A stretch of DNA of 64,000 bases from Chiloscyllium plagiosum. Lineage: Eukaryota. The notes beneath the pieces were generated by a model. That model made no database searches and was not told the origin of the DNA. It saw only the letters and a list, made by a program, of their open reading frames with translations. The translations under genes and the position numbers were made by a program. The stretch's first letter is position 1. Each line of letters opens with the position of its first letter. The stretch lies in contig NC_057719.1 of NCBI RefSeq assembly GCF_004010195.1, forward strand, positions 46,918,470 through 46,982,469. Reading direction: 5' to 3'. Shown piece by piece: positions 10,246-41,915 of this stretch.

Positions 10246-11075
10246 TCAGCGGCACCCACATCCCTCTACAACCATTTCCTGATAGTTTTTCAGAACAACT
10301 TTATCGTATTCGTCCAAGTAGAGCATTGAGATGGGACTGAGTTCCGTCGGGACACAGCAAGCTTTAGGGATGTTGGCATTGACAGAATTGACCAGGGTCT
10401 GCACGATGGCGTGGTTGGTAGAGTTTAGATGGTCCGCCAGTGGGAACGGGCAGTCCCCGTGACAGTAAAAAGCTTGGTAACCAGGGGGTGCCACTATCCA
10501 GTCGTTCCAGCCCACATCGCTGAAATCCACATAGAGAGAGTGCCTCCTGCAGTGCGATTTGTTTTTCTTACGCCTCTGGCCCTTGCTGCTCCGTTTCACC
10601 CTCCGGGTTAGAGCGTGTCCCTTGCCATCGTGGCTGAACGTTACAAGCAAGGGCCTGAGCTGCGACCAGTCGCCATGCCTCTGCTGCAGTGACCGGCGCA
10701 TCCGGACGTGTTGACTCTTTGACCCGTTCAAGTGGGTGACCTCCACGGCCAGCCCGTGGTTGGGCTGCTTTTGCATGGTCCATCTGAGTACCGCCGGACT
10801 CACATCGAAGCTCTCCCACCGTGTCCTGTTCTGGTGGACCAGCCTGGTGTCTAAGAGCCTGGTGATCAGCTCGCCCTTCTCGCTCGGGGCTCTCATGATC
10901 TCGTACACGTTGATACGGTGGAGTCCGTCGGCCCGGTCCCACACGCTGTCGATTCGCTCCCGGAAAAGCCGCAGCTCTGCGGAAGACAGCACCTCGTTCT
11001 CAGGCACCACGCTGATATTAAACACGAAGCGGAGCTGCGAGTCTTCTCTCTGCCCTGGCATCAGCTCCAAGTGTT
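10246..11075 (-). CDS. BMP4: BMP4 last coding exon (C-terminal prodomain and mature TGF-beta domain)
   Basis: Acceptor aacag at 11080-11076, phase 1. Encodes (E)HLELMPGQ...RVKR/SSK...[57 protein letters not shown]...KACCVPTEL...[12 protein letters not shown]. Has the 7-Cys knot, and YQEMVV/GDCPFPL fit BMP4 rather than BMP2. Confidence 0.98.
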
Positions 11076-11722: not shown

Positions 11723-12074
11723 CTTCATGGTGAAAGCTCCTCACGGTGTTGGCCCGGCTTGTGGATCTCTCAGGATATTCGAAACTAATGTCGTGAGTGA
11801 CCTCGTCCCCGGACTGCAGCCTGTACAGATCCAGCATGTACTGGGGGACGACAGCGGACTTACTGGGCTGTGGGCGCCGTTGCAGTCCGAACATGTTGAG
11901 TAAAGTGGCCTCAAATTCCCGTAGCAGTTCATGGTTTTGCGGAGAGCGACGTCCACCCGCCTGGCTTTGCTCAGCAAACTTTTTCCTCCCTTCCTCTGGT
12001 ATCAGACTAGCATTACCTCCCAGTAAGACCTGGCATAATAAAATTACCATCAGCATTCGGTTACCAGGAATCAT
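11723..12074 (-). CDS. BMP4: BMP4 first coding exon (signal peptide and N-terminal prodomain)
   Basis: ATG at 12074 in context gacacc[23 protein letters not shown] is the diagnostic BMP4 N-terminus, and the exon ends [11 protein letters not shown]. Acceptor ccacag lies just before 12081 (7 nt of UTR); donor G|gtact at 11722. 352+830 nt = 394 codons, giving 393 aa in a continuous frame. Confidence 0.98.
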
Positions 12075-12744
12075 GGTGTCTCTGTGGAGCAAAACAAGCA
12101 ACAACAAAAAAAACCGAATGAGAATTACGAGTAATCTTCAATCAACGCCCCAGAGAGAGAACGCACGACACAGAGAAAGAGAGTGAGAGAAGAGGTATAA
12201 TTACTTGGTCTCAACTCGGTTACAGTTAAATAGCCCATAATCAGGCAGATAGCACCATCCTGTTACTCTTTTGTGTTTTCACTATCTTAGTAATTATCTT
12301 AGACTGGTTTCTTTGGAGGCAACACGTTCAAAATGTTGCACTGGGCATTTCACCAAACGCCTCATGATTTTTGAGAAATGGAGAGAAAAAGGCACATAAT
12401 TCGTGCGAAGAGTTTTTTTTTTAATTTAAAATGTGTTCACATTTCTAGATTGACTGCTTTTGATTGCTATGGGTCTGTCGATGCAACATTTCCTTAATTG
12501 TTTTCGTGATAAGCAAGGTACAAGTGCACCCCCTCAACCGAAACGAATTCTCACCCAACAAGAGAGCTGTAATAGTGTAGGGAAGGACCGCAAGTACATG
12601 TTTAAGAGAGGAATCAAATAAATGGATAAAAACACATAGATATCGCTACAGTATGAAACCGGGAAGTATGAATCCTTATTTATTAGAATAGTATAAAATA
12701 GGTCTACTCACTGACAGAAAACAAGGCAGATGAAAACAGTCCAT
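12061..12744 (-). CDS. Putative spliced overlapping uORF, join(12744..12712,12081..12061), 17 aa [17 protein letters not shown]
   Basis: The only ATG in the 5'UTR exon, in context agaatcATGg (A-3, G+4). Reads across the splice junction and ends at TAA 12063-12061, overlapping the main ATG out of frame. Confidence 0.6.
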
Positions 12745-12832
12745 GATTCTTGACAGCCGATCTTGGACAAGTTCTTGAAAAGCTCAGGGACTCTGGAGCT
12801 TGGCTGCTCGGCTACGTATTATCGAATCCCTC
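12712..12832 (-). other. BMP4: BMP4 non-coding 5'UTR exon (orthologue of mammalian exon 2)
   Basis: Donor ctgtca|gtgagt at 12711 and probable acceptor ttccag|gag at 12833. The spliced product ...ggctgtcaagaatcatggactgtt...tgccttgttttctgtca|agacaccATG matches the human BMP4 5'UTR as I recall it. The 5' boundary is less certain than the donor. Confidence 0.85.
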
Positions 12833-12859
12833 CTGGAACAGTATTTGAATATAATGAGC

Positions 12860-13440
12860 AGGCTCTCCGTTTCCTCTCGGCGACGTCAGACAGCCCCTCC
12901 CCAGCTGCCAATCAAGCCACAATCCCCGCCTCCCCGGCTGGCGCTCCGCCCCACACCGCCGGCCCCGCCCCCTAAAGTGAGCACACCGCCGGCCACGCCC
13001 ACTACTGTCCGCGCCCCGCCGGTCACGCCCCAAACGGCGAGGCCGTCGTCAGCCCCGCCCTCTGTATTTATGCGCACCACGCCCCATCTGTCAATCAACT
13101 GCCAGCCCCACCCCCCCCGCAGCTCGACACGGCGGCGACGTCCCCCTCAGGGGCCGCCCTACCGCCCCGCCCCCATCAAAACCCTCCCAGCCGACCCTGA
13201 CCCCTTCAGGCTGCACCCCGCCGGCGCAACCGCATCTGCTAATCAACATCAAGCCCCACCCCCTAAATGTTTAGCCACCTACGTCCCGCCTGTCCCTGTG
13301 TTGGCCAAGGGCGGGCACTGCGATACACAGTGCTGTCAATCAACACACCCACCCCGCCCAAGACACCGCCCACCCATCTCCCCGCCTACTGTCCAATCCA
13401 AATCACCAGCCGCGCCCCAACCACCAATCAAAGGCATGAC
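12860..13440 (-). promoter_or_regulatory. GC/CpG-rich promoter-like region immediately upstream of the 5'UTR exon
   Basis: Many Sp/KLF boxes (ccccgccc, ccacgccc, ctccgccc), CRE-like cgacgtca at 12881-12888, CCAAT boxes (~13393, ~13424) and TGATTGACAG at 13088 and 13333. Confidence 0.7.
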
Positions 13441-13581
13441 CTGCCCACTACTGAAGCCAAGCGGCTCACCCGCTCTCTATGGGGAGCCCCGATTGCTGGC
13501 CATGCACCGTAACCTGACTGGCCTTCACAGACACGAACCCTCATGGCCCTGCCTCCTCCAAAGTCAGGGTTATCCCCCAAC

Positions 13582-14578
13582 CTCAATGTCAGTCACTTTA
13601 TAGACTGGCTCCTTCACTGTCCATCACCCCGCAGACCCGCTCCTTCACTGTCCATCACCCCGCAGACCCGCTCCTTCACTGTCCATCACCCCCGCAGACC
13701 CGCTGTCAATCATCCCATAGTTAAAAATCACACAACACCAGGTCAGAGTCCAACAGGTTTATTTGGGAGCACGAGCTTTCGGAGCGCTGCTCTTTCATCA
13801 GGTAGCTGTGGGAGTGGATCATACAACACAGAATTTATAACTAGGGCCATCCCCCGACCTCAATGTCAGTCAGTATATACACCCGCTTCTTCACTGTCAA
13901 TCACCTTATAGACCCGCTCCTTCTCTGTCACTCACCCTATAGACCCGCTCCATCACTGTCAATCATCCTATAGACCCGCTCCAACACTGTCAATAACCCT
14001 AATGACCCGCTCCTTCTCTGTCACGCACCCTATAGACCCGCTCCTTCTCTGTCAATCACCCTATAGACCCGCTCCATCACTGTCAATCATCCTACAGACC
14101 CGCTCCTCCACTGTCAATCACCTTATAGACCCGCTCCTTCTCTGTCACTCACCCTATAGACCCGCTCCATCACTGTCAATCACCCTACAGACCCGCTCCT
14201 TTTCTGTCGTTCACCCTACAGACCCGCTCCTCGCTGTCAATCATCCTCCAGACCTGCTACTCCACTGTCAATCACCATAGAGGTCTGCTCCTTCACTGTC
14301 AATCACCATAGAGATCTGCTCCTTCACTGTCAATCAACCCATAGACCCACATCTTCACAGTCAATCACCCTATAGGCCCGCTCCATCACTGTCAATAACT
14401 CTATAGACCCACTTCTCCACTGTCAATCAACTTACATACTCTCACTGTCAATCATCCTAGAGGCCCGCGCTAACACTGTCAATGATCCTATAGACCCACT
14501 CTTCCACTGTCAATCATCCTGACCTCTTCCTTCGATGTCAATCACCCTATAGATCTCCTTATTCAGTGGCAATCACCA
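13582..14578. repeat. 31-bp minisatellite, left block (consensus ~gacccgctccttcactgtcaatcaccctata)
   Basis: gacccgctcc recurs at 13911, 13942, 13973 and onward (period 31). Interrupted by a PLE-type terminus at ~13720-13840. Confidence 0.95.
13720..13840 (-). mobile_element. Short PLE-associated terminal repeat containing a minimal hammerhead motif (13770-13804)
   Basis: Minus strand reads tac-CTGATGA-aa-GAGC-agc-GCTC-c-GAAAGCTC-gtg, inserted within the minisatellite. Confidence 0.7.
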
Positions 14579-15675
14579 AATTGATGGTATAGTGGAAGGT
14601 TAGCTAAGACTACAAAGAGATATCGATCAATTGGGTCAATTGCTGATGAGTGGCAGATGGGAGCTAATTTCGGAAAAATGCAAGGTATTGGTAAAACAAA
14701 TCAGGATGAGACTTATACAATTAATGGGAAGGCCCTGGGGAGTGTGGTAAAACAGAAAGGCCTAGGGGTTCGGGGACATAATTCTTTGAAATGTGTGTCA
14801 CAGGTAGACAGGATAGTGAAGAAGATGTTTAGTATGCTTGCAATCATTACACAGACCTTTGAGTCTAGGAGTTGGGATGTCATGTTGAGGTTATATAGGC
14901 CATCGATGAGACCTCTTCTGGAGTACTCTGTACAGTTCTGGTCATCCTGCTATAGGAAGGATATTATTAGGTTTGTGTGCGTTCAGAAAGGATTTACTAG
15001 GATGGAGGTTTTGAATTATAAAAACAGGGTGGATAGGTTGGGACATTTTTCACTGGAGCATAGGTTGAGGGTACCTTGTATAGGTATATAAAATGATGAG
15101 GGCATAGATAAGATGAATAGCAAGGGTCTTTTCACTTAAGGTGGGGGAGTTCAAACCTAGGGAGTATGTTTTTAAAGTGAGAGGGGAAAGTTTTTTTCAT
15201 AAGTGTTTTAGGGTCAACTTTTTACAGAGTGGTTCAGGTGTGGAATGAACTACCAGACGAAGTAGTGGATGCAGGTGCAACATTTAAAGACATTTGTATA
15301 AGTACATGAATAGGAAAGGTTTGAAGGGATATAGGCTAAATGCAGACAAGTTTAGTTTGGGAACATGGTCAGTGTGGACGATAGGGGAGTCCAAAACTAG
15401 AGGGCATAGATTTAAGCTGAGAGTGGAAAGTTATAAAAGGGACCTAAGGGCCAACGTTTTTCATGCAGAGGGTGGTGTGTGTATGGTATGAGCTGCCAGA
15501 GGAAGTGGTGGTGGCTGGTACATTTATAACATTTAAAATGTATCTGGACGGGATACATGAATAGGACAGGTCAAATGCTGGCAAATAGAACTAGATTAAT
15601 TTAGGATAGCTGGTTGGTATGGCTGAGTTGGACTGAAGGGTCTGTTTCCATGCTGTATGTTTCTATGATTCTATG
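14579..15675 (+). mobile_element. 5'-truncated CR1 3' fragment(s) inserted into the minisatellite
   Basis: ORF 14657-15091 (KGLGVRGHNSLK...LYRPSMRPLLEYSVQFWSS) is the CR1 ORF2 C-terminus. The 3' region is duplicated (second copy from ~15381) and ends in a ctatgatt-type tail. Confidence 0.9.
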
Positions 15676-15689
15676 AATCCATGACCTGT

Positions 15690-16210
15690 TAGACCCGCTA
15701 CTTCACTGTCAGTCATTCTATAGGTCTACTCTTTCGGTGTCAATCACCATATAGCCTGGTTCATTCCTGATGAAGGGCTTTTGCCCAAAATGTTTATTTT
15801 TCTGATCATGGGATGCTGCCAGACTTGCTGTGCTTTTCCAGCACCACTCTAATCTTGAACCTGTTCCTTCAGTGTCAATCACCCTATAAACCTGCTCTTT
15901 CAATGTCAATCACCCTACAGACCTCCTCCTTCATTGTCAAACAATCTACAGAGCCACACTTTCACTGTCAATCACCCCACAGACCCACTCCTTCACTGTC
16001 AATCACCCTATAGGCCCGCTCCTTCTGTGTCAGTTACCCCATAGGCCTCCTCTTCAGTGTCAGTCACTCTATAGGCCCACTCCTTCACTCTCAAAACTCT
16101 ATACGCTCACCGTTGCATGCCAATTACCCTAAAGGCCCACCGTTGCACTGTCAATCACCATACTGGCCACACCTCCATCACAGTCGTCACCCAGCTCCTT
16201 CTTCATCGTC
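15690..16210. repeat. 31-bp minisatellite, right block (more degenerate)
   Basis: The same unit (cactgtcaatcaccctataggcccgctccttc) resumes after the CR1 insertion. Confidence 0.9.
15760..15858 (+). mobile_element. Short PLE 3' terminus with degenerate hammerhead (GAAA mutated to AAAA)
   Basis: ttcctgatgaagggcttttgcccaaaatg...gatgctgcc...ttccagcaccactctaatct; same family as 41785-41900. Confidence 0.8.
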
Positions 16211-16229
16211 AGTCACCTCGGGCCACGCC

Positions 16230-16510
16230 TGACTGCCAATCATCCGGAGCCCCGACAGAGCTCACGGCCCACCTGTCAATCACCGGACAAGACAACACCC
16301 TCCCAACCCGCCCCCAGAACAAGCGACGTCCCAGTGCATGGGCGCCAATCAGAGCGCTAGGCTAGGAGGCTGATCACCTGTCAATCATTGCGGGGTTCGG
16401 AACCTCAGGCTGCAGTCGCCGCTGCTGAAACACCATGAGCATTGCGGCCAATGTGAAGAGAGCCTGGAGACACATGGCCCTGCGGTGCTGCAGCCGGGCG
16501 TGCGATTTTC
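16230..16510. promoter_or_regulatory. CpG-rich unique segment with TGATTGACAG (16273, 16378), CCAAT and GGCGCC motifs
   Basis: Motifs read directly from the sequence. Regulatory function is inferred. Confidence 0.4.
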
Positions 16511-17724
16511 ACATTTCGCCAGAATGAACTCACGGGAATGCTATAATAAAAACAGAAAATGCTGGAAACACTCACCTGAAAGTAGCATCGTTACAGAAAC
16601 ACTGCCCATTACATAGGGCAACATTCAGTGAAAGTTTATGTGCATTTTCACTCGCTATAACCAAAGGCTAATCGATGCTACAGAATTTATATCAATACGG
16701 TTGCATTTTTATCAATTGTAACACCCATGAAATGGGCAACACCGTTTTTTAATGACTGTGTTTCACAAACTGCACCGAAATATTTTGTTTATTTCATGTA
16801 GTGCCTCTCGCTGACAAGTTCGTGTACAAATTCTGTCGACTACCTCCCATATGGAAACGGTTGTAAGTTATTTAATGACATATTTAAAGTAGGAACTCTG
16901 GTATCATAGGGACAAGATCCCATAATAATGCATAGCATTAAATCGCACATTTTCACAGGTTCACAGCAAAACACAGAAGCTCTTAAGTAAGTATTAAACG
17001 ACCCCATCACCCATTTTCACTAAAAGCGTTATCAAAGTGCTCCTAAAATGCATTCACCATGCAATGCAAATTACACAAACATTTCACAAATAGATCACGC
17101 AACGTCGGGTATTTTTATCTTCCAGTTGGACTATGAAAATGATTCATTGGTTTACCAAGGTTTACAGTAAAAAACAGGCATCTGACCTCACAGAAAAATA
17201 CAATCGATCCGAAATGCATGCATTATATACTCGTTAGCCTTCAATCACTCGATAGACTGATCTAATCAAAATCTAAGCAACGCTTTTAATATGTCGCCGC
17301 ATTAAAACACGTAAGTTGGGAGTGTTTAAATCAAGATTTTAATACAAGTTGTCTATCTCCAAAACTATTAATTCAATATTAGCATCTGCAGGATCACTTA
17401 ACTCGGTTCTGGCAATGAACTTTCAAGAAATGAAACCAGCTAAATATTTATATACAGGAAAATCAGTCAATTAATGCTCAAATCACCGCCAGTTTCAATA
17501 AATACATCCTGAGGAAATGTTCGTTATAAAGTGAGTTCTGAAACTCCAAGCTGACATTGTGGCCCTCGCGTTTTGTTAAGTGGAGCACGTGTGATTACAC
17601 TAATAAGAAGCCAATGTGTAGGTAAAATAATTATTGCCAATTTATATCGACTAATTCTCCCGTTTTCACGATACAACCATCTCAGTTTTGCCACATGTAT
17701 CAACAATAGTTAAAGATGACTCAC

Positions 17725-18500
17725 CCTGCAAGTCGCGTACTCATATACTCCACAATAATTGCATCTGCTCGACTATCTGTAGGTAGAGAATTTTTGAACC
17801 AATCAAAATTCAATTTATCTGAAACGGACTGGATTAAGGCGCCAGGGATAGACGCGCTCGAACAAACCCTCATATTCGATCCATTTTAAGAAACCAAACT
17901 GGAACTATCAGTTAATCCCACTAATAAAGTGGCCGCCCAGTTTCTGCAATTTGTTGGAAAGTACGTACGTCATTGTGGTATTTTAGCGGAGTTCATAAAG
18001 CCTCACTTATGCGATCTCTATAATATTCCACTTCCTTCCTGCAGAAGTGGGTAATAGCTGTATATCCAAGGCGATACAGCGTGTGAATACCGTATACTGT
18101 ACACATAACAAGTAGCACATTCCTCTATCACAAGTTTTCTTTAAACTAGCCCCACGGCGTTTATATTAACTTTGCTGTGAACAGCATATTAACTCGTCGC
18201 TTAGGAAGGATTGCATTTTATTCAGAAACCCGCATATCTGTGATCGAGTTCTTCCGGAGCGACAGAAATTCCTGTGAGCAAGAGAAAACAGATTTGAAGA
18301 TAAAGAAAACGCAGAAATTGCAATTACAAAGTCAGTTCGTTGTGTTGGGTGGGGTATACAACCACAGTATGACGAAGATATGTAAAAGTCGGTTTTGGTC
18401 GGTACCAGCAAGTAGCGAATAACTACACGTGGAAAAAAGGCTTGAGATCAGACGAAAGTCAACGCTTTTAAGTGCCCTGAATAATAGCACGCGGTAAAGG
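17725..18500 (-). promoter_or_regulatory. Candidate BMP4 first exon / distal promoter
   Basis: Strong minus-strand donor cagg|gtgagt (GT at 17724-17723) at the edge of a CpG-dense, repeat-free stretch. The 5'UTR exon has an acceptor that needs an upstream partner. No transcript evidence is available. Confidence 0.35.
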
Positions 18501-21500
18501 TTACAGTGGAAGGATTGCACCTACTAATATGCAGAATATACACATTAGTTTAGTTTAAATTGTGATTAAAAATAACTAGAAAGCAGAAACAAATAGGTGT
18601 CAATTTTCCACCAACATCTTCACTCTTAAATCTTGGTCACGTTCAGTCATTCATAAGGGAGACGGTGTTGAGTCAGTCCTCCCCACCAAAAAAAGAGAAA
18701 TGAGTGTAAGGGTTGGAGGGGAAACCAAGACTAGAAGATAAAGTAGCATTTTGAGGAGCACAATAGTTGTGCTACACCTTATTGCTTAGTAAATGGACTG
18801 CACATTTGTCGGGTCACAATCTAAAGCAGTGGTGGCTAATGTTCTGTAAACTATTTTATGTCATTATTCAAACGCTGGGAATAAATGCAATTTTTGACAC
18901 AACGTCCAAAATAACGATACCTTTACACTGCAGCCTGGAGAGGGTTCATTAGAGAGCAGCTGGTTGGAAACCAGAACCTAGACCTCCAAGAGAGTAATAT
19001 TTTCTCAAATTATTTGGACACTTAGAAATGAGTTTGTTTGGATTGGAGAAAAATGAAATTAATAGCATCTTCTTAAAAATGGCCAGAGGAGTATGTACCA
19101 GGAAGCTAATTCGAATTAGGTTGCTAGTAGCAAATTTGAAACAGCAGAATTTGCATGTAAAACTGAAGATTAGAAGTAGATTAGGAAAGCAAATTCAATG
19201 CTATAACAATTGTTGCTATGTTGACACTTATTTCAGCAAAATAGTGTAAGTATGGGGTTAGTGGTTGAATTAACACAAGCATTTATCAATAGCTATGATA
19301 AAATATTTTCTTCAGATACTGAAATGATGGAATTGAAATCAACTAATCAATGATAAACAATCTCAGTATGGAGTTGGATTTGCCTTATGCTTTGTATGTG
19401 AGAACAGTGACAGCATTTACCGAATCTTTCATTAAGAAGTAAGTTCTGTATTATCCAAGTGAGTTGAATATACAATATCATTTTATTCAGTGTAACAACT
19501 TATACTTAGATGGTGGCTTTAAAATAGTTGGGCAGGACAATCAATGCTGAGTGAGAAGGCTGTCAGGTAAGGTAACAAAGGGCATGTCGACCAGCTAGGC
19601 TTCTAACTCTGAGGAGAAAGTTAAATATTGGAGGGATTTAGTAAGAGAATTTCAGGAGGGTAGAGCCATGAGGGTGAATTAACAGGACAATGGATACACA
19701 GAGTTCCAGACTCAGAAGAACAAAAGGATGTTGCAGAAGTAGCACAGAGAAAGACCGTGGATAGATTCTATAAATTATTTATGCCTTGTATTCTCATGGT
19801 ACAAGCCATTCCTCAGCTATGAGAGTGGGGAAGTAAACTCCTCCTAGTGCTGTCCCACTATTATACTGTCTGAAAGTCCTTCCTCATGAGGCCATCTAGA
19901 TGCCTCAACACAAGAACAAACTAATTAGGGCAAGAGTTGGATAAGTAGCTCCTTAAACCTGCTCACTCTTCAGTAATATCCTGGGGGACTTTTTACCTCA
20001 ACTCAACTTTTCCATTTCTGATCTTACATTTTCCTCTTAAATAAATTCAGGCCTTTCCATACAAAGAATAATGGATTATATATTGTATGTATATTTTTCA
20101 TTTGTACATGTCACAGTCCTTGTCCTACCATTCCAGTAATTCATCAGATTTGTAAACAGTGACATAGAAAAGCTGTATTTGCTGCCTTGGTAAATATAAT
20201 CATGTCACTGAATACAGCTTCCTCTCCAAACTGATTTTCAACTATAATTCACAATCGAAACTGCAGAGCAGTGCAGTGGTACAGCAAGTTGGTGAGTCAA
20301 CATATTATACTACCTTTCACCCTTTACATCAACAATTCCTGCACAATGAAATTAAGTTTCTCGCCTTATTTTCAAGGTAAATTGCCAATTGTTGATATCA
20401 ATTATTCACTAGTAGTGCAAACTCTTAAGGCAACAAATGTTGAAAAACAGGGATTATCCAAATGAAAATGTAGGCTAGCCTATTAGCCAATACTATTAAA
20501 CACATAGTCTTTCCTTCCACCAAAATATTAACATTAGTAATTGTGAAAGTGCAGCACAAAGTTGACCTATCTCATCAATATGATCTTCAAATGTGCACTA
20601 AGTAACATTTCAAATATGCAGTTTCTAAACTTGACAAGAAGTGATTATAGAGACCCATCCAGTATGACGATGTCAGTGTTATAACTGAGACAGTTGCGAA
20701 GAAAGTCAAGAGAAGCATCAATGTTATCACTAATAGCAGGCTTTAAGAATAGATGAACATTTAAGTGAATTCAGGAGTGAGGTGAGATTGCTTTTCCCAG
20801 AGTAGTAAATGGCAAAGGAGAGGTAATAGATTTGGTTTTGAGACATTGTGAAGGAGCCAGAGAAATGTGCAATAGTCCTAGGTGAAATTTCACAACACAT
20901 TTAAACATGGGACATAATGAAATGTGAACCAAGAGAGTTTTTCTCAAGTGAAAGGAAAAACTCAACAGCAGCGTGCCAGATTTCAGTCAAGCCCAGAATG
21001 TTAGTTTACTCCTCCAGGATAAGGATATGAACAGGGAGTCTTGTTCACAAATGAGCAAATATTTTGCAGGCTGTTGTAAAGTGGAAGCATGTTTAGACAT
21101 TCAATTGACGAGTGGAGGATAAAGACAAAGGCAGAGTCACTGGGAAGTGAAATAGCTCATATTGTGAATAGGCTACACAAGGGAGGAAGCTTCAGATTAT
21201 TGCCAGAGGAATTAAATGAGTTCAGGAGGTGTTAGGAGAGAGGAGTGAGATAAATAAATAAAATGATGTGCAGCTTAAAATTTACATAACTATCAACCTC
21301 TCATCCAAGATTTGTGGTATGTTAAATAAGTCTGCTTTTCTCTCAATTTCAATTAATTAATATTAAGCAAAATTGCTTATGCAAGCACAAATATATTACA
21401 AGGTAAAAAGACATTTAATTTCAATTTCACTCACTTTAGAATTCTGTTTTAGTCTGACTTCCTAGATCATATATTTCAAAGGACAACATCTGAACATTTA

Positions 21501-40269: not shown

Positions 40270-40863
40270 TTGCCATCCCCTGCTCGACACTGTCCTATCC
40301 CCCCTAGTCCAGGAACTCCCCACATACGTTCGAGACACCACCCACGCCCTCCACCTCCTCCAAGACTTCCGTTTCCCCGGCCCCCAACGCCTCATCTTCA
40401 CCATGGATATCCAATCCCTCTACACCTCCATCTGCCATGACCAGGGCCTCTAAGCCCTCTGTTTTGTCCTCTCCCAACGTCTCCAACAGTACCCTGCCAC
40501 CGACACTCTCATTCGTTTGGCCGAACCGGTCCTCACCCTTAACAATTTCTCCTTTGAATCCTCCCACTTCCTCCAGACAAAAGGGGTAGCCATGGGCACA
40601 CGTATGGGCCCCAGCTATGCCTGTCTCTTTGTTGGCTACGTAGAACAGTCCATCTTCCGTAATTACACCGGCACCACTCCCCACCTCTTCCTCCGCTACA
40701 TCGATGACTGCATTGGCGCCACCTCGTGCTCCCGCGAGGAGGTTGAGCAATTCATCAACTTCACCAACACATTCCACCCCGACCTTAAATTTACCTGGAC
40801 CATCTCCGACACCTGGCTCCCCTTCCTGGACCTCTCCATCTCCATTAATGACAACCGACTTGA
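40270..40863 (+). mobile_element. Penelope-like element reverse transcriptase core (runs into the gap)
   Basis: FTMDIQSLYTSI...LTLNNFSF...QTKGVAMGTRMGPSYACLFVGYVE...FLRYIDD...FTWTIS..LPFLD are PLE RT motifs. Confidence 0.9.
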
Positions 40864-41329
40864 NNNNNNNNNNNNNNNNNNNNNNNNNNNNNNNNNNNNN
40901 NNNNNNNNNNNNNNNNNNNNNNNNNNNNNNNNNNNNNNNNNNNNNNNNNNNNNNNNNNNNNNNNNNNNNNNNNNNNNNNNNNNNNNNNNNNNNNNNNNNN
41001 NNNNNNNNNNNNNNNNNNNNNNNNNNNNNNNNNNNNNNNNNNNNNNNNNNNNNNNNNNNNNNNNNNNNNNNNNNNNNNNNNNNNNNNNNNNNNNNNNNNN
41101 NNNNNNNNNNNNNNNNNNNNNNNNNNNNNNNNNNNNNNNNNNNNNNNNNNNNNNNNNNNNNNNNNNNNNNNNNNNNNNNNNNNNNNNNNNNNNNNNNNNN
41201 NNNNNNNNNNNNNNNNNNNNNNNNNNNNNNNNNNNNNNNNNNNNNNNNNNNNNNNNNNNNNNNNNNNNNNNNNNNNNNNNNNNNNNNNNNNNNNNNNNNN
41301 NNNNNNNNNNNNNNNNNNNNNNNNNNNNN
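40864..41329. other. Assembly gap (466 N)
   Basis: Run of N. Confidence 1.
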
Positions 41330-41915
41330 GGACAAGTCATGGGGACAGTGCTGAGCTGGAAGTTTGGAATTAGGTTGAGGTGGGGGAAGGGGAAATGAGG
41401 AAACTGTTGAAATCCACATTGATGCCCTGGGGTTGGGCCTCCTCCACCGCTGCTCCCTCACCACCAGATGCCTGGAGGAAGAACGCCTCATCTTCCGCCT
41501 CGGAACACTTCAACCCCAGGGCATCAATGTGGATTTTAACAGTTTCCTCATTTCCCCTTCCCCCACCTCATCCTAGTTTCAAACTTGCAGCTCCGCACTG
41601 TCCCCTTGACCTGTCCGGACTTGTCCGACCTGCCCCGCTCCTTTTCCACCTATCCACTCCACCCTCTCCTCCCTGACCTATCACCTTCATCTCCTTCCCC
41701 ACTGACCTATTGTACTCTATGCCACTCTCTCCCCACCCCCACCCTCCTCTAGCTTATCTCTCCACGCTTCAGGCTCTCTGCCTTTATTCCTGATGAAGGG
41801 CTTTTGCCCGAAACGTCGATTTTGCCTGTCTTCGGATGCTGCCTGAATTGCTGTGCTCTTCCAGCACCACTGATCCAGAATCTGGTTTCCAGCATCTGCA
41901 GTCATTGTTTTTATC
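41330..41915 (+). mobile_element. PLE 3' end (41436-41915, +) preceded by an inverted partial copy (41330-41435, -)
   Basis: LEEERLIFRLGTLQPQGINVDF is the PLE C-terminus. 41330-41435 is the reverse complement of ~41508-41610. Confidence 0.85.
41788..41819 (+). ncRNA. Minimal type I hammerhead ribozyme motif in PLE terminus
   Basis: tc-CTGATGA-a-GGGC-tttt-GCCC-GAAAC-GTC-ga: intact catalytic core, 4-bp stem II and palindromic ACGT stem III. Confidence 0.7.

Follow-up and report, generated by a model that had tools for sequence, protein, structure and literature searches.

The question raised by this locus is whether a tandem repeat that carries one predicted TALE-factor binding word many times over, at the 5′ end of a BMP4 gene, is a kept cluster of sites or a by-product of repeat growth. 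The locus was analyzed in a stretch of 64,000 nucleotides of the Chiloscyllium plagiosum genome (GCF_004010195.1, contig NC_057719.1, positions 46,918,470 to 46,982,469, forward strand), which is called the window here and from whose first letter all positions are counted. We put the probability at about one half that a TALE-site module of a BMP4 CpG-island element was amplified and that the sequence reflects its being kept under weak selection as a redundant predicted PBX-PREP/MEIS cluster. The main evidence for this is a deficit of mutations in the decamer as compared with the rest of the repeat unit.

The dosage of BMP4 matters in the development of jaw, teeth and fins, and TALE sites clustered in tandem at the 5′ end of the gene would offer a simple, mutable route to dosage change in sharks. 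A predicted array of DECA sites at this gene would also be a natural test of DECA function, which is partly open in the zebrafish papers, and the array serves as an experiment in itself, in which the decay of 42 copies of one unit reveals the bases that resist change. Should the decamer signal be chance, the array is an ordinary gene-edge minisatellite.

The array and its flanks

The exact word CTGTCAATCA is present 21 times between 13088 and 16387 (last start 16378), always on the plus strand, and nowhere else in the window, while dinucleotide shuffles gave a mean of 0.28 and a maximum of 2. An earlier reading of the letters by a model, called here the sequence-only reading, had counted about 21 copies in a single orientation and had named the word as a PBX-MEIS/PREP site, and both statements stand, the word being the published DECA motif (PMC6023610). 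The published PREP motif is tGAxtGaCag (PMC4395233), and the word is bound by PBX-PREP proteins in zebrafish and mouse (PMC6023610, PMC4395233).

The 31-bp unit described in that reading was recovered by Tandem Repeats Finder (TRF), which reported period-31 arrays at 13608-13704, 13876-14553 and 15859-16159. Its division into two blocks has to be replaced by four segments, A to D, which are split by three inserts with approximate borders, as follows.

13570 to 13712, plus strand: array segment A, four units and a truncated one, with the variant CTGTCCATCA in three units (TRF, unit alignment)
13713 to 13843: insert 1, about 130 bp, with the left boundary of the array duplicated on both sides (60-bp alignment of the two boundaries)
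13848 to 14578, plus strand: array segment B, 24 units, the left half young and homogeneous and the right half more diverged (unit alignment)
14580 to 15685, plus strand: insert 2, 3′ fragment of a long interspersed nuclear element (LINE), 1.1 kb, with an internal partial duplication
15688 to 15749, plus strand: array segment C, two units (unit alignment)
15750 to 15858: insert 3, end of a dispersed repeat, about 110 bp, 80-90% identical to nine other places in the window
15855 to 16222, plus strand: array segment D, 12 units, the most diverged and CpG-eroded (unit alignment)

The units were aligned globally to the TRF consensus without anchoring on the decamer, which gave 46 rows; 42 were kept, and four mostly empty rows, each having over 8 gap columns, were set aside. 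The units follow each other head to tail with a spacing of exactly 31 bp in 28 of 41 cases, as in a minisatellite (units of about 10-60 bp), their mean pairwise identity is 73% with three identical pairs, and the left half of segment B has a weak periodicity of 3, 4 and 7 units. Among the 42 units the decamer takes the form TGATTGACAG in 16, TGAGTGACAG in two and TGACTGACAG in one, and the truncated unit at 13703 holds one further exact copy. The motif TGAnTGACAG is present in 19 of the 42 units and in one truncated unit, which makes the array a large homotypic cluster within a tandem repeat; 24 such sites lie in 13088-16387 and two in the remaining window. The assembly is gapped (466 N at about 40860-41330, inside a reverse-transcriptase-like fragment), and homogeneous parts of the array may therefore be collapsed. 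As a separate observation, the TGAGTGACAG variant produces GTGAGT, a donor-like word, at two places within the array, 13935 and 14152 (minus), on the sense strand of BMP4.

The decamer was also found in the GC-rich sequences on both sides of the array, as the earlier reading had reported.

12850 to 13569: proximal GC-rich CpG-island flank, with decamers at 13088 and 13333, CCAAT at 12908, 13393 and 13424, and eight CC[CA]C[GA]CCC boxes
16223 to 16500: distal GC-rich flank, with decamers at 16273 and 16378 and CCAAT at 16236, 16345 and 16448

These four exact decamers outside the array compare with a shuffle mean of 0.004. The idea that they are worn array units finds no support, for of the 21 remaining positions of the unit the sequence around them shares 3-7, against a background of 6.3, and the TALE-type site in the flanks is therefore independent of the array. 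The flanks are rich in CCAATCA (4 against 0.2 expected) and in CC[CA]C[GA]CCC (8 against 1.8), all on one strand. The earlier statement that the flank decamers lie near CCAAT boxes holds as far as this enrichment goes, but the nearest CCAAT is 175, 50, 32 and 28 bp away from the four decamers, so that the published distance of about 20 bp (within a composite of about 27 bp) is absent at all four, and the consensus unit has no CCAAT. For want of this spacing the array was not assigned to the TALE/NF-Y composite class. The proximal flank further contains an older loose module recurring at 148-185 bp and, at 12952-13030, a second small tandem repeat of GC boxes (30 bp, 2.6 copies). Three of the four flank decamers (13088, 16273, 16378) overlap an E-box-like CANNTG at the TGACAG end, which the consensus unit does not.

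Possible preservation of the decamer

The sequence-only reading had made the comparison of the decamer with the rest of the unit a check of its proposal, and the decamer is indeed less mutated. Mismatches to the consensus were found at 41 of 418 decamer positions (9.8%) and at 167 of 859 other positions (19.4%, or 17.9% without CpG), about half the rate, with a per-position P of 0.008 (0.016 without CpG). Parsimony on the unit tree requires 2.9 steps per site in the decamer and 5.2 elsewhere (P=0.008), and a base-stratified test gives P=0.02. When the published tGAxtGaCag is taken as the reference, its nine fixed positions are mismatched in 30 of 376 cases (8.0%, P=0.003) and its four strong positions in 9 of 167 (5.4%), and the free position is mismatched in 11 of 42 (26%), that is, at the background rate. 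The range of P from 0.003 to 0.02 holds when the motif is fixed beforehand. The deficit is kept in the 32 units inside the TRF spans (P=0.02) and is significant in the right half of B alone (P=0.0025), and TGAnTGACAG is kept by 19 of 42 units as compared with 10 expected from the units' own divergence, the highest of 31 windows of the unit. A low intrinsic mutability of the decamer was considered as an explanation and is unsupported: a rough trinucleotide control built on 184 changes in window repeats gave a mutability ratio of 1.02 and predicts no lower rate. On this sequence evidence we consider the odds slightly better than even that the constraint on the decamer is real.

Slippage or unequal exchange would have amplified one decamer-bearing module, PBX-PREP or PBX-MEIS dimers may occupy some of the 24 TGAnTGACAG sites, and the loss of sites would be mildly disfavoured. 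The effect would lie in helping to keep the BMP4 element accessible, as was proposed for zebrafish DECA sites, with no tissue patterning and no part for exact helical phasing. DECA peaks bound by Prep in zebrafish carry CCAAT and CC(C/A)C(G/A)CCC motifs (PMC6023610).

A considerable number of observations weigh against selection on the sites. When the best of 31 10-bp windows is freely chosen P rises to 0.12, and the decamer may have drawn notice because it is the best-kept part of the unit; variants that occur once show no deficit (9 in 10 positions against 17 in 21, P=0.69), and neither the left half of B (P=0.25) nor C and D together (P=0.20) is significant alone. The last G of TGACAG is altered in 12 of 42 units, the units of the array are not independent of one another, and the context control, itself noisy, fails to predict the rates at the other positions of the unit (rho -0.05). 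Three mobile-element inserts have been tolerated in the array. The CpG of the unit survives in all but one of the 12 units of left B (11 of 12), as compared with 3 of 12 in right B and 2 of 14 in C and D, and it was lost mostly to TG or CA, which points to methylation. Published DECA/NF-Y elements were active as reporters in 1 of 7 cases in HEK293 cells (PMC6023610) and drove a reporter in 5 of 8 in zebrafish (10.1101/720102), so that activity cannot be assumed.

Divergence from the consensus rises from 11% in left B to 21% in C and D, and the sequence indicates that the array is old, was interrupted after its growth and was probably methylated in its distal part. Its age, its interruptions and the CpG erosion of its older parts make an active control by copy number less plausible, which weakens the tunable enhancer proposed in the sequence-only reading.

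Most of these points are what would be expected if the array were neutral, with the flank decamers, their CCAAT and the GC boxes doing the work, the array a passive amplification of the CpG island and the better-kept decamer a matter of chance. The best-window value, the missing deficit among single-occurrence variants, the erosion of CpG, the inserts and the frequency of decamer arrays in metagenomes (see below) all favour this explanation, which is a serious possibility and nearly as likely as the reading preferred here. Against it stands that the motif came from the literature and has four further copies in the flanks, so that the choice of the 10-bp segment was not an open one, and that the variable position of the unit coincides with the free position of the published motif. 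The mismatch profiles of right B and of C and D also correlate across the LINE insert (rho 0.53, P=0.002), a correlation to which shared descent and CpG contribute.

The phasing of the sites was analyzed separately, as the sequence-only reading had placed them on roughly one face of the helix. This part of it fails. The period of 31 bp is 2.95 turns at 10.5 bp per turn, which sets neighbours about 17 degrees apart, and at this value the sites of segment B go right round the helix (R=0.07); they keep phase only if a turn is taken as about 10.33 bp (R=0.76). The off-period spacings of 25, 27, 28, 29 and 30 bp do not respect the phase, which is broken by indels, and 16% of all periods from 10 to 60 lie within 0.5 bp of a multiple of 10.5. 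A helically phased site array was therefore rejected.

Metagenome arrays and known systems

Metagenome contigs were scanned for paired decamers, from which about 1400 stretches were estimated and 120 loci (L001-L120) were examined; the scan had no control word and no enrichment is claimed. Tandem arrays with unrelated units and periods of 11-299 make up 86 of the 120 loci, and 9 of 68 long loci look coding. The extension TGATTGACAG-GTG/CTG is present in 37 of the 120 loci (3.3 expected from base composition), and of 101 sequence clusters 30 have it. Fewer mutations in the decamer than in the remaining unit were counted in 26 of 34 arrays, and in 15 of 19 (rank test P=0.06) after the removal of three duplicates and with stricter criteria, which is suggestive only. 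These arrays cut both ways, as they are not special to BMP4, yet may reflect a general process in which TALE/E-box sites often seed minisatellites. The wider proposal, that TALE decamers would repeatedly seed minisatellites which are then preserved, that the array, with about 24 PBX-PREP/MEIS sites, would be under selection and tune BMP4 dosage in development through their number, and that the metagenome arrays would be the same process, appears unlikely to us.

The array at shark BMP4 adds one more case to a type already described. It resembles IFNB1-MRE and related tandem-repeat motif clusters in having tens of homotypic transcription factor motifs in a tandem repeat near a regulated gene (Krumwiede et al. 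2026, PMC13373173), with 24 TGAnTGACAG sites against the 45 PU.1 sites of IFNB1-MRE. As described in that source, IFNB1-MRE is a proven enhancer, is conserved across mammals as a cluster and varies in humans between 7 and 13 repeats. The shark array differs from it in its factor class, in its degeneracy and in being split by three inserts. By analogy it would work, if at all, like the IFNB1 clusters with a different factor.

The same comparison suggests that the sites could be bound and the array held closed in the manner of MORC3, or that it could soak up TALE factors, so as to dampen BMP4 or insulate elements upstream. In mammals, MORC3 limits the accessibility of tandem repeats that hold large motif clusters (PMC13373173), and the CpG loss in older units fits methylation, yet the clusters named in the available part of that paper are SPI/ETS, AP-1 and SP/KLF and not TALE, and about 24 sites are few for a sink when PREP sites number in the thousands across the genome (in mouse trunk about 3,300, PMC4395233). 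We regard such a silenced or buffering cluster as improbable.

The DECA/NF-Y elements of zebrafish and mouse (PMC6023610, 10.1101/720102, PMC4395233) share with shark BMP4 the decamer, CCAAT and Sp/Klf-type boxes near a developmental gene. In the published elements DECA lies about 20 bp from CCAAT in a composite of about 27 bp (PMC6023610, 10.1101/720102), whereas at shark BMP4 the gaps are at least 28 bp and most sites lie in a tandem array free of CCAAT.

Literature searches, at the level of search results, turned up no earlier description of TALE sites in a tandem array or of the shark BMP4 locus. The human ABO gene reportedly has an upstream 43-bp minisatellite enhancer bound by CBF/NF-Y, with few near-identical, polymorphic units that each hold a CCAAT site. 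The shark array would be like it in having a promoter-type factor site in each unit upstream of a gene, and unlike it in having about 42 diverged units and a TALE site instead of CCAAT.

That the unit is a dispersed satellite or element-borne repeat which landed at BMP4 is very improbable, as no other copy of it occurs within the 64-kb window, a single marginal match was found among the 120 metagenome loci (L015, E=8e-4), and the same decamer is built on the same strand into the unique flanks on both sides. Of 24 sequencing runs listed for the stretch, 20 contain it at least in part and 8 contain half or more of its words; these 8 (shares of 0.70-0.85) all belong to one organism, DNA runs of a second organism reach about 0.41, no RNA run with the stretch is among those listed, and none of the runs enters the conclusions.

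Inserts and the BMP4 gene

Insert 2 shares 67-80% identity with further copies in the window, and next to the best of these lies an open reading frame (ORF) with RVT_1; the element is presumably CR1/L2-like. Inserts 1 and 3 are taken by us to be Penelope-like. Penelope elements carry hammerhead-type ribozymes. An Rfam scan of 12800-19000 gave no RNA family at E up to 5; hammerhead-like cores (CTGATGA...GAAA) are present in short repeat ends at 13801 (minus, insert 1) and 41790 (plus).

The position at the 5′ end of BMP4, which the sequence-only reading had given, is borne out, and the array starts about 740 bp upstream of the upstream BMP4 exon. The gene lies on the minus strand and is identified as BMP4 by its last exon, which shares 90% identity with shark and sawfish BMP4, the two best matches, and 64-67% with matches named BMP2. 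The following features belong to the gene or to its surroundings.

10246 to 11075, minus strand: last coding exon of BMP4 (propeptide end and mature domain), an ORF with Pfam TGF_beta and TGFb_propeptide, 90% identical to chondrichthyan BMP4
11723 to 12081, minus strand: main first coding exon of BMP4 (ORF, sequence, and comparison of gene models P0001 and P0002)
12712 to 12832, minus strand, 5′ boundary approximate: upstream BMP4 exon (5′ untranslated region, coding in some gene models), from translation
16500 to 18750: AT-rich but CpG-rich zone with CpG observed/expected of 0.8-1.1, an unconfirmed candidate site for a further upstream BMP4 exon

The stretch from 12712 to about 12832 is taken as the upstream exon because its translation matches the N-terminal extensions of the chondrichthyan models P0001 and P0003. 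The first 11 residues of P0003 have no convincing match upstream of it (best score 24), and since no further upstream exon could be matched, the array may lie either in intron 1 of BMP4 or upstream of a promoter. In mammals a second BMP4 promoter presumably lies just before the exon corresponding to 12712-12832; literature searches on the BMP4 promoter structure found no paper. A splice-signal scan gave donor-like sites on the minus strand at 16575 and 17724 in the CpG-rich zone. At the upstream exon two GT donors stand five bases apart at 12711-12717 (minus), and the extension of P0001 fits the inner one.

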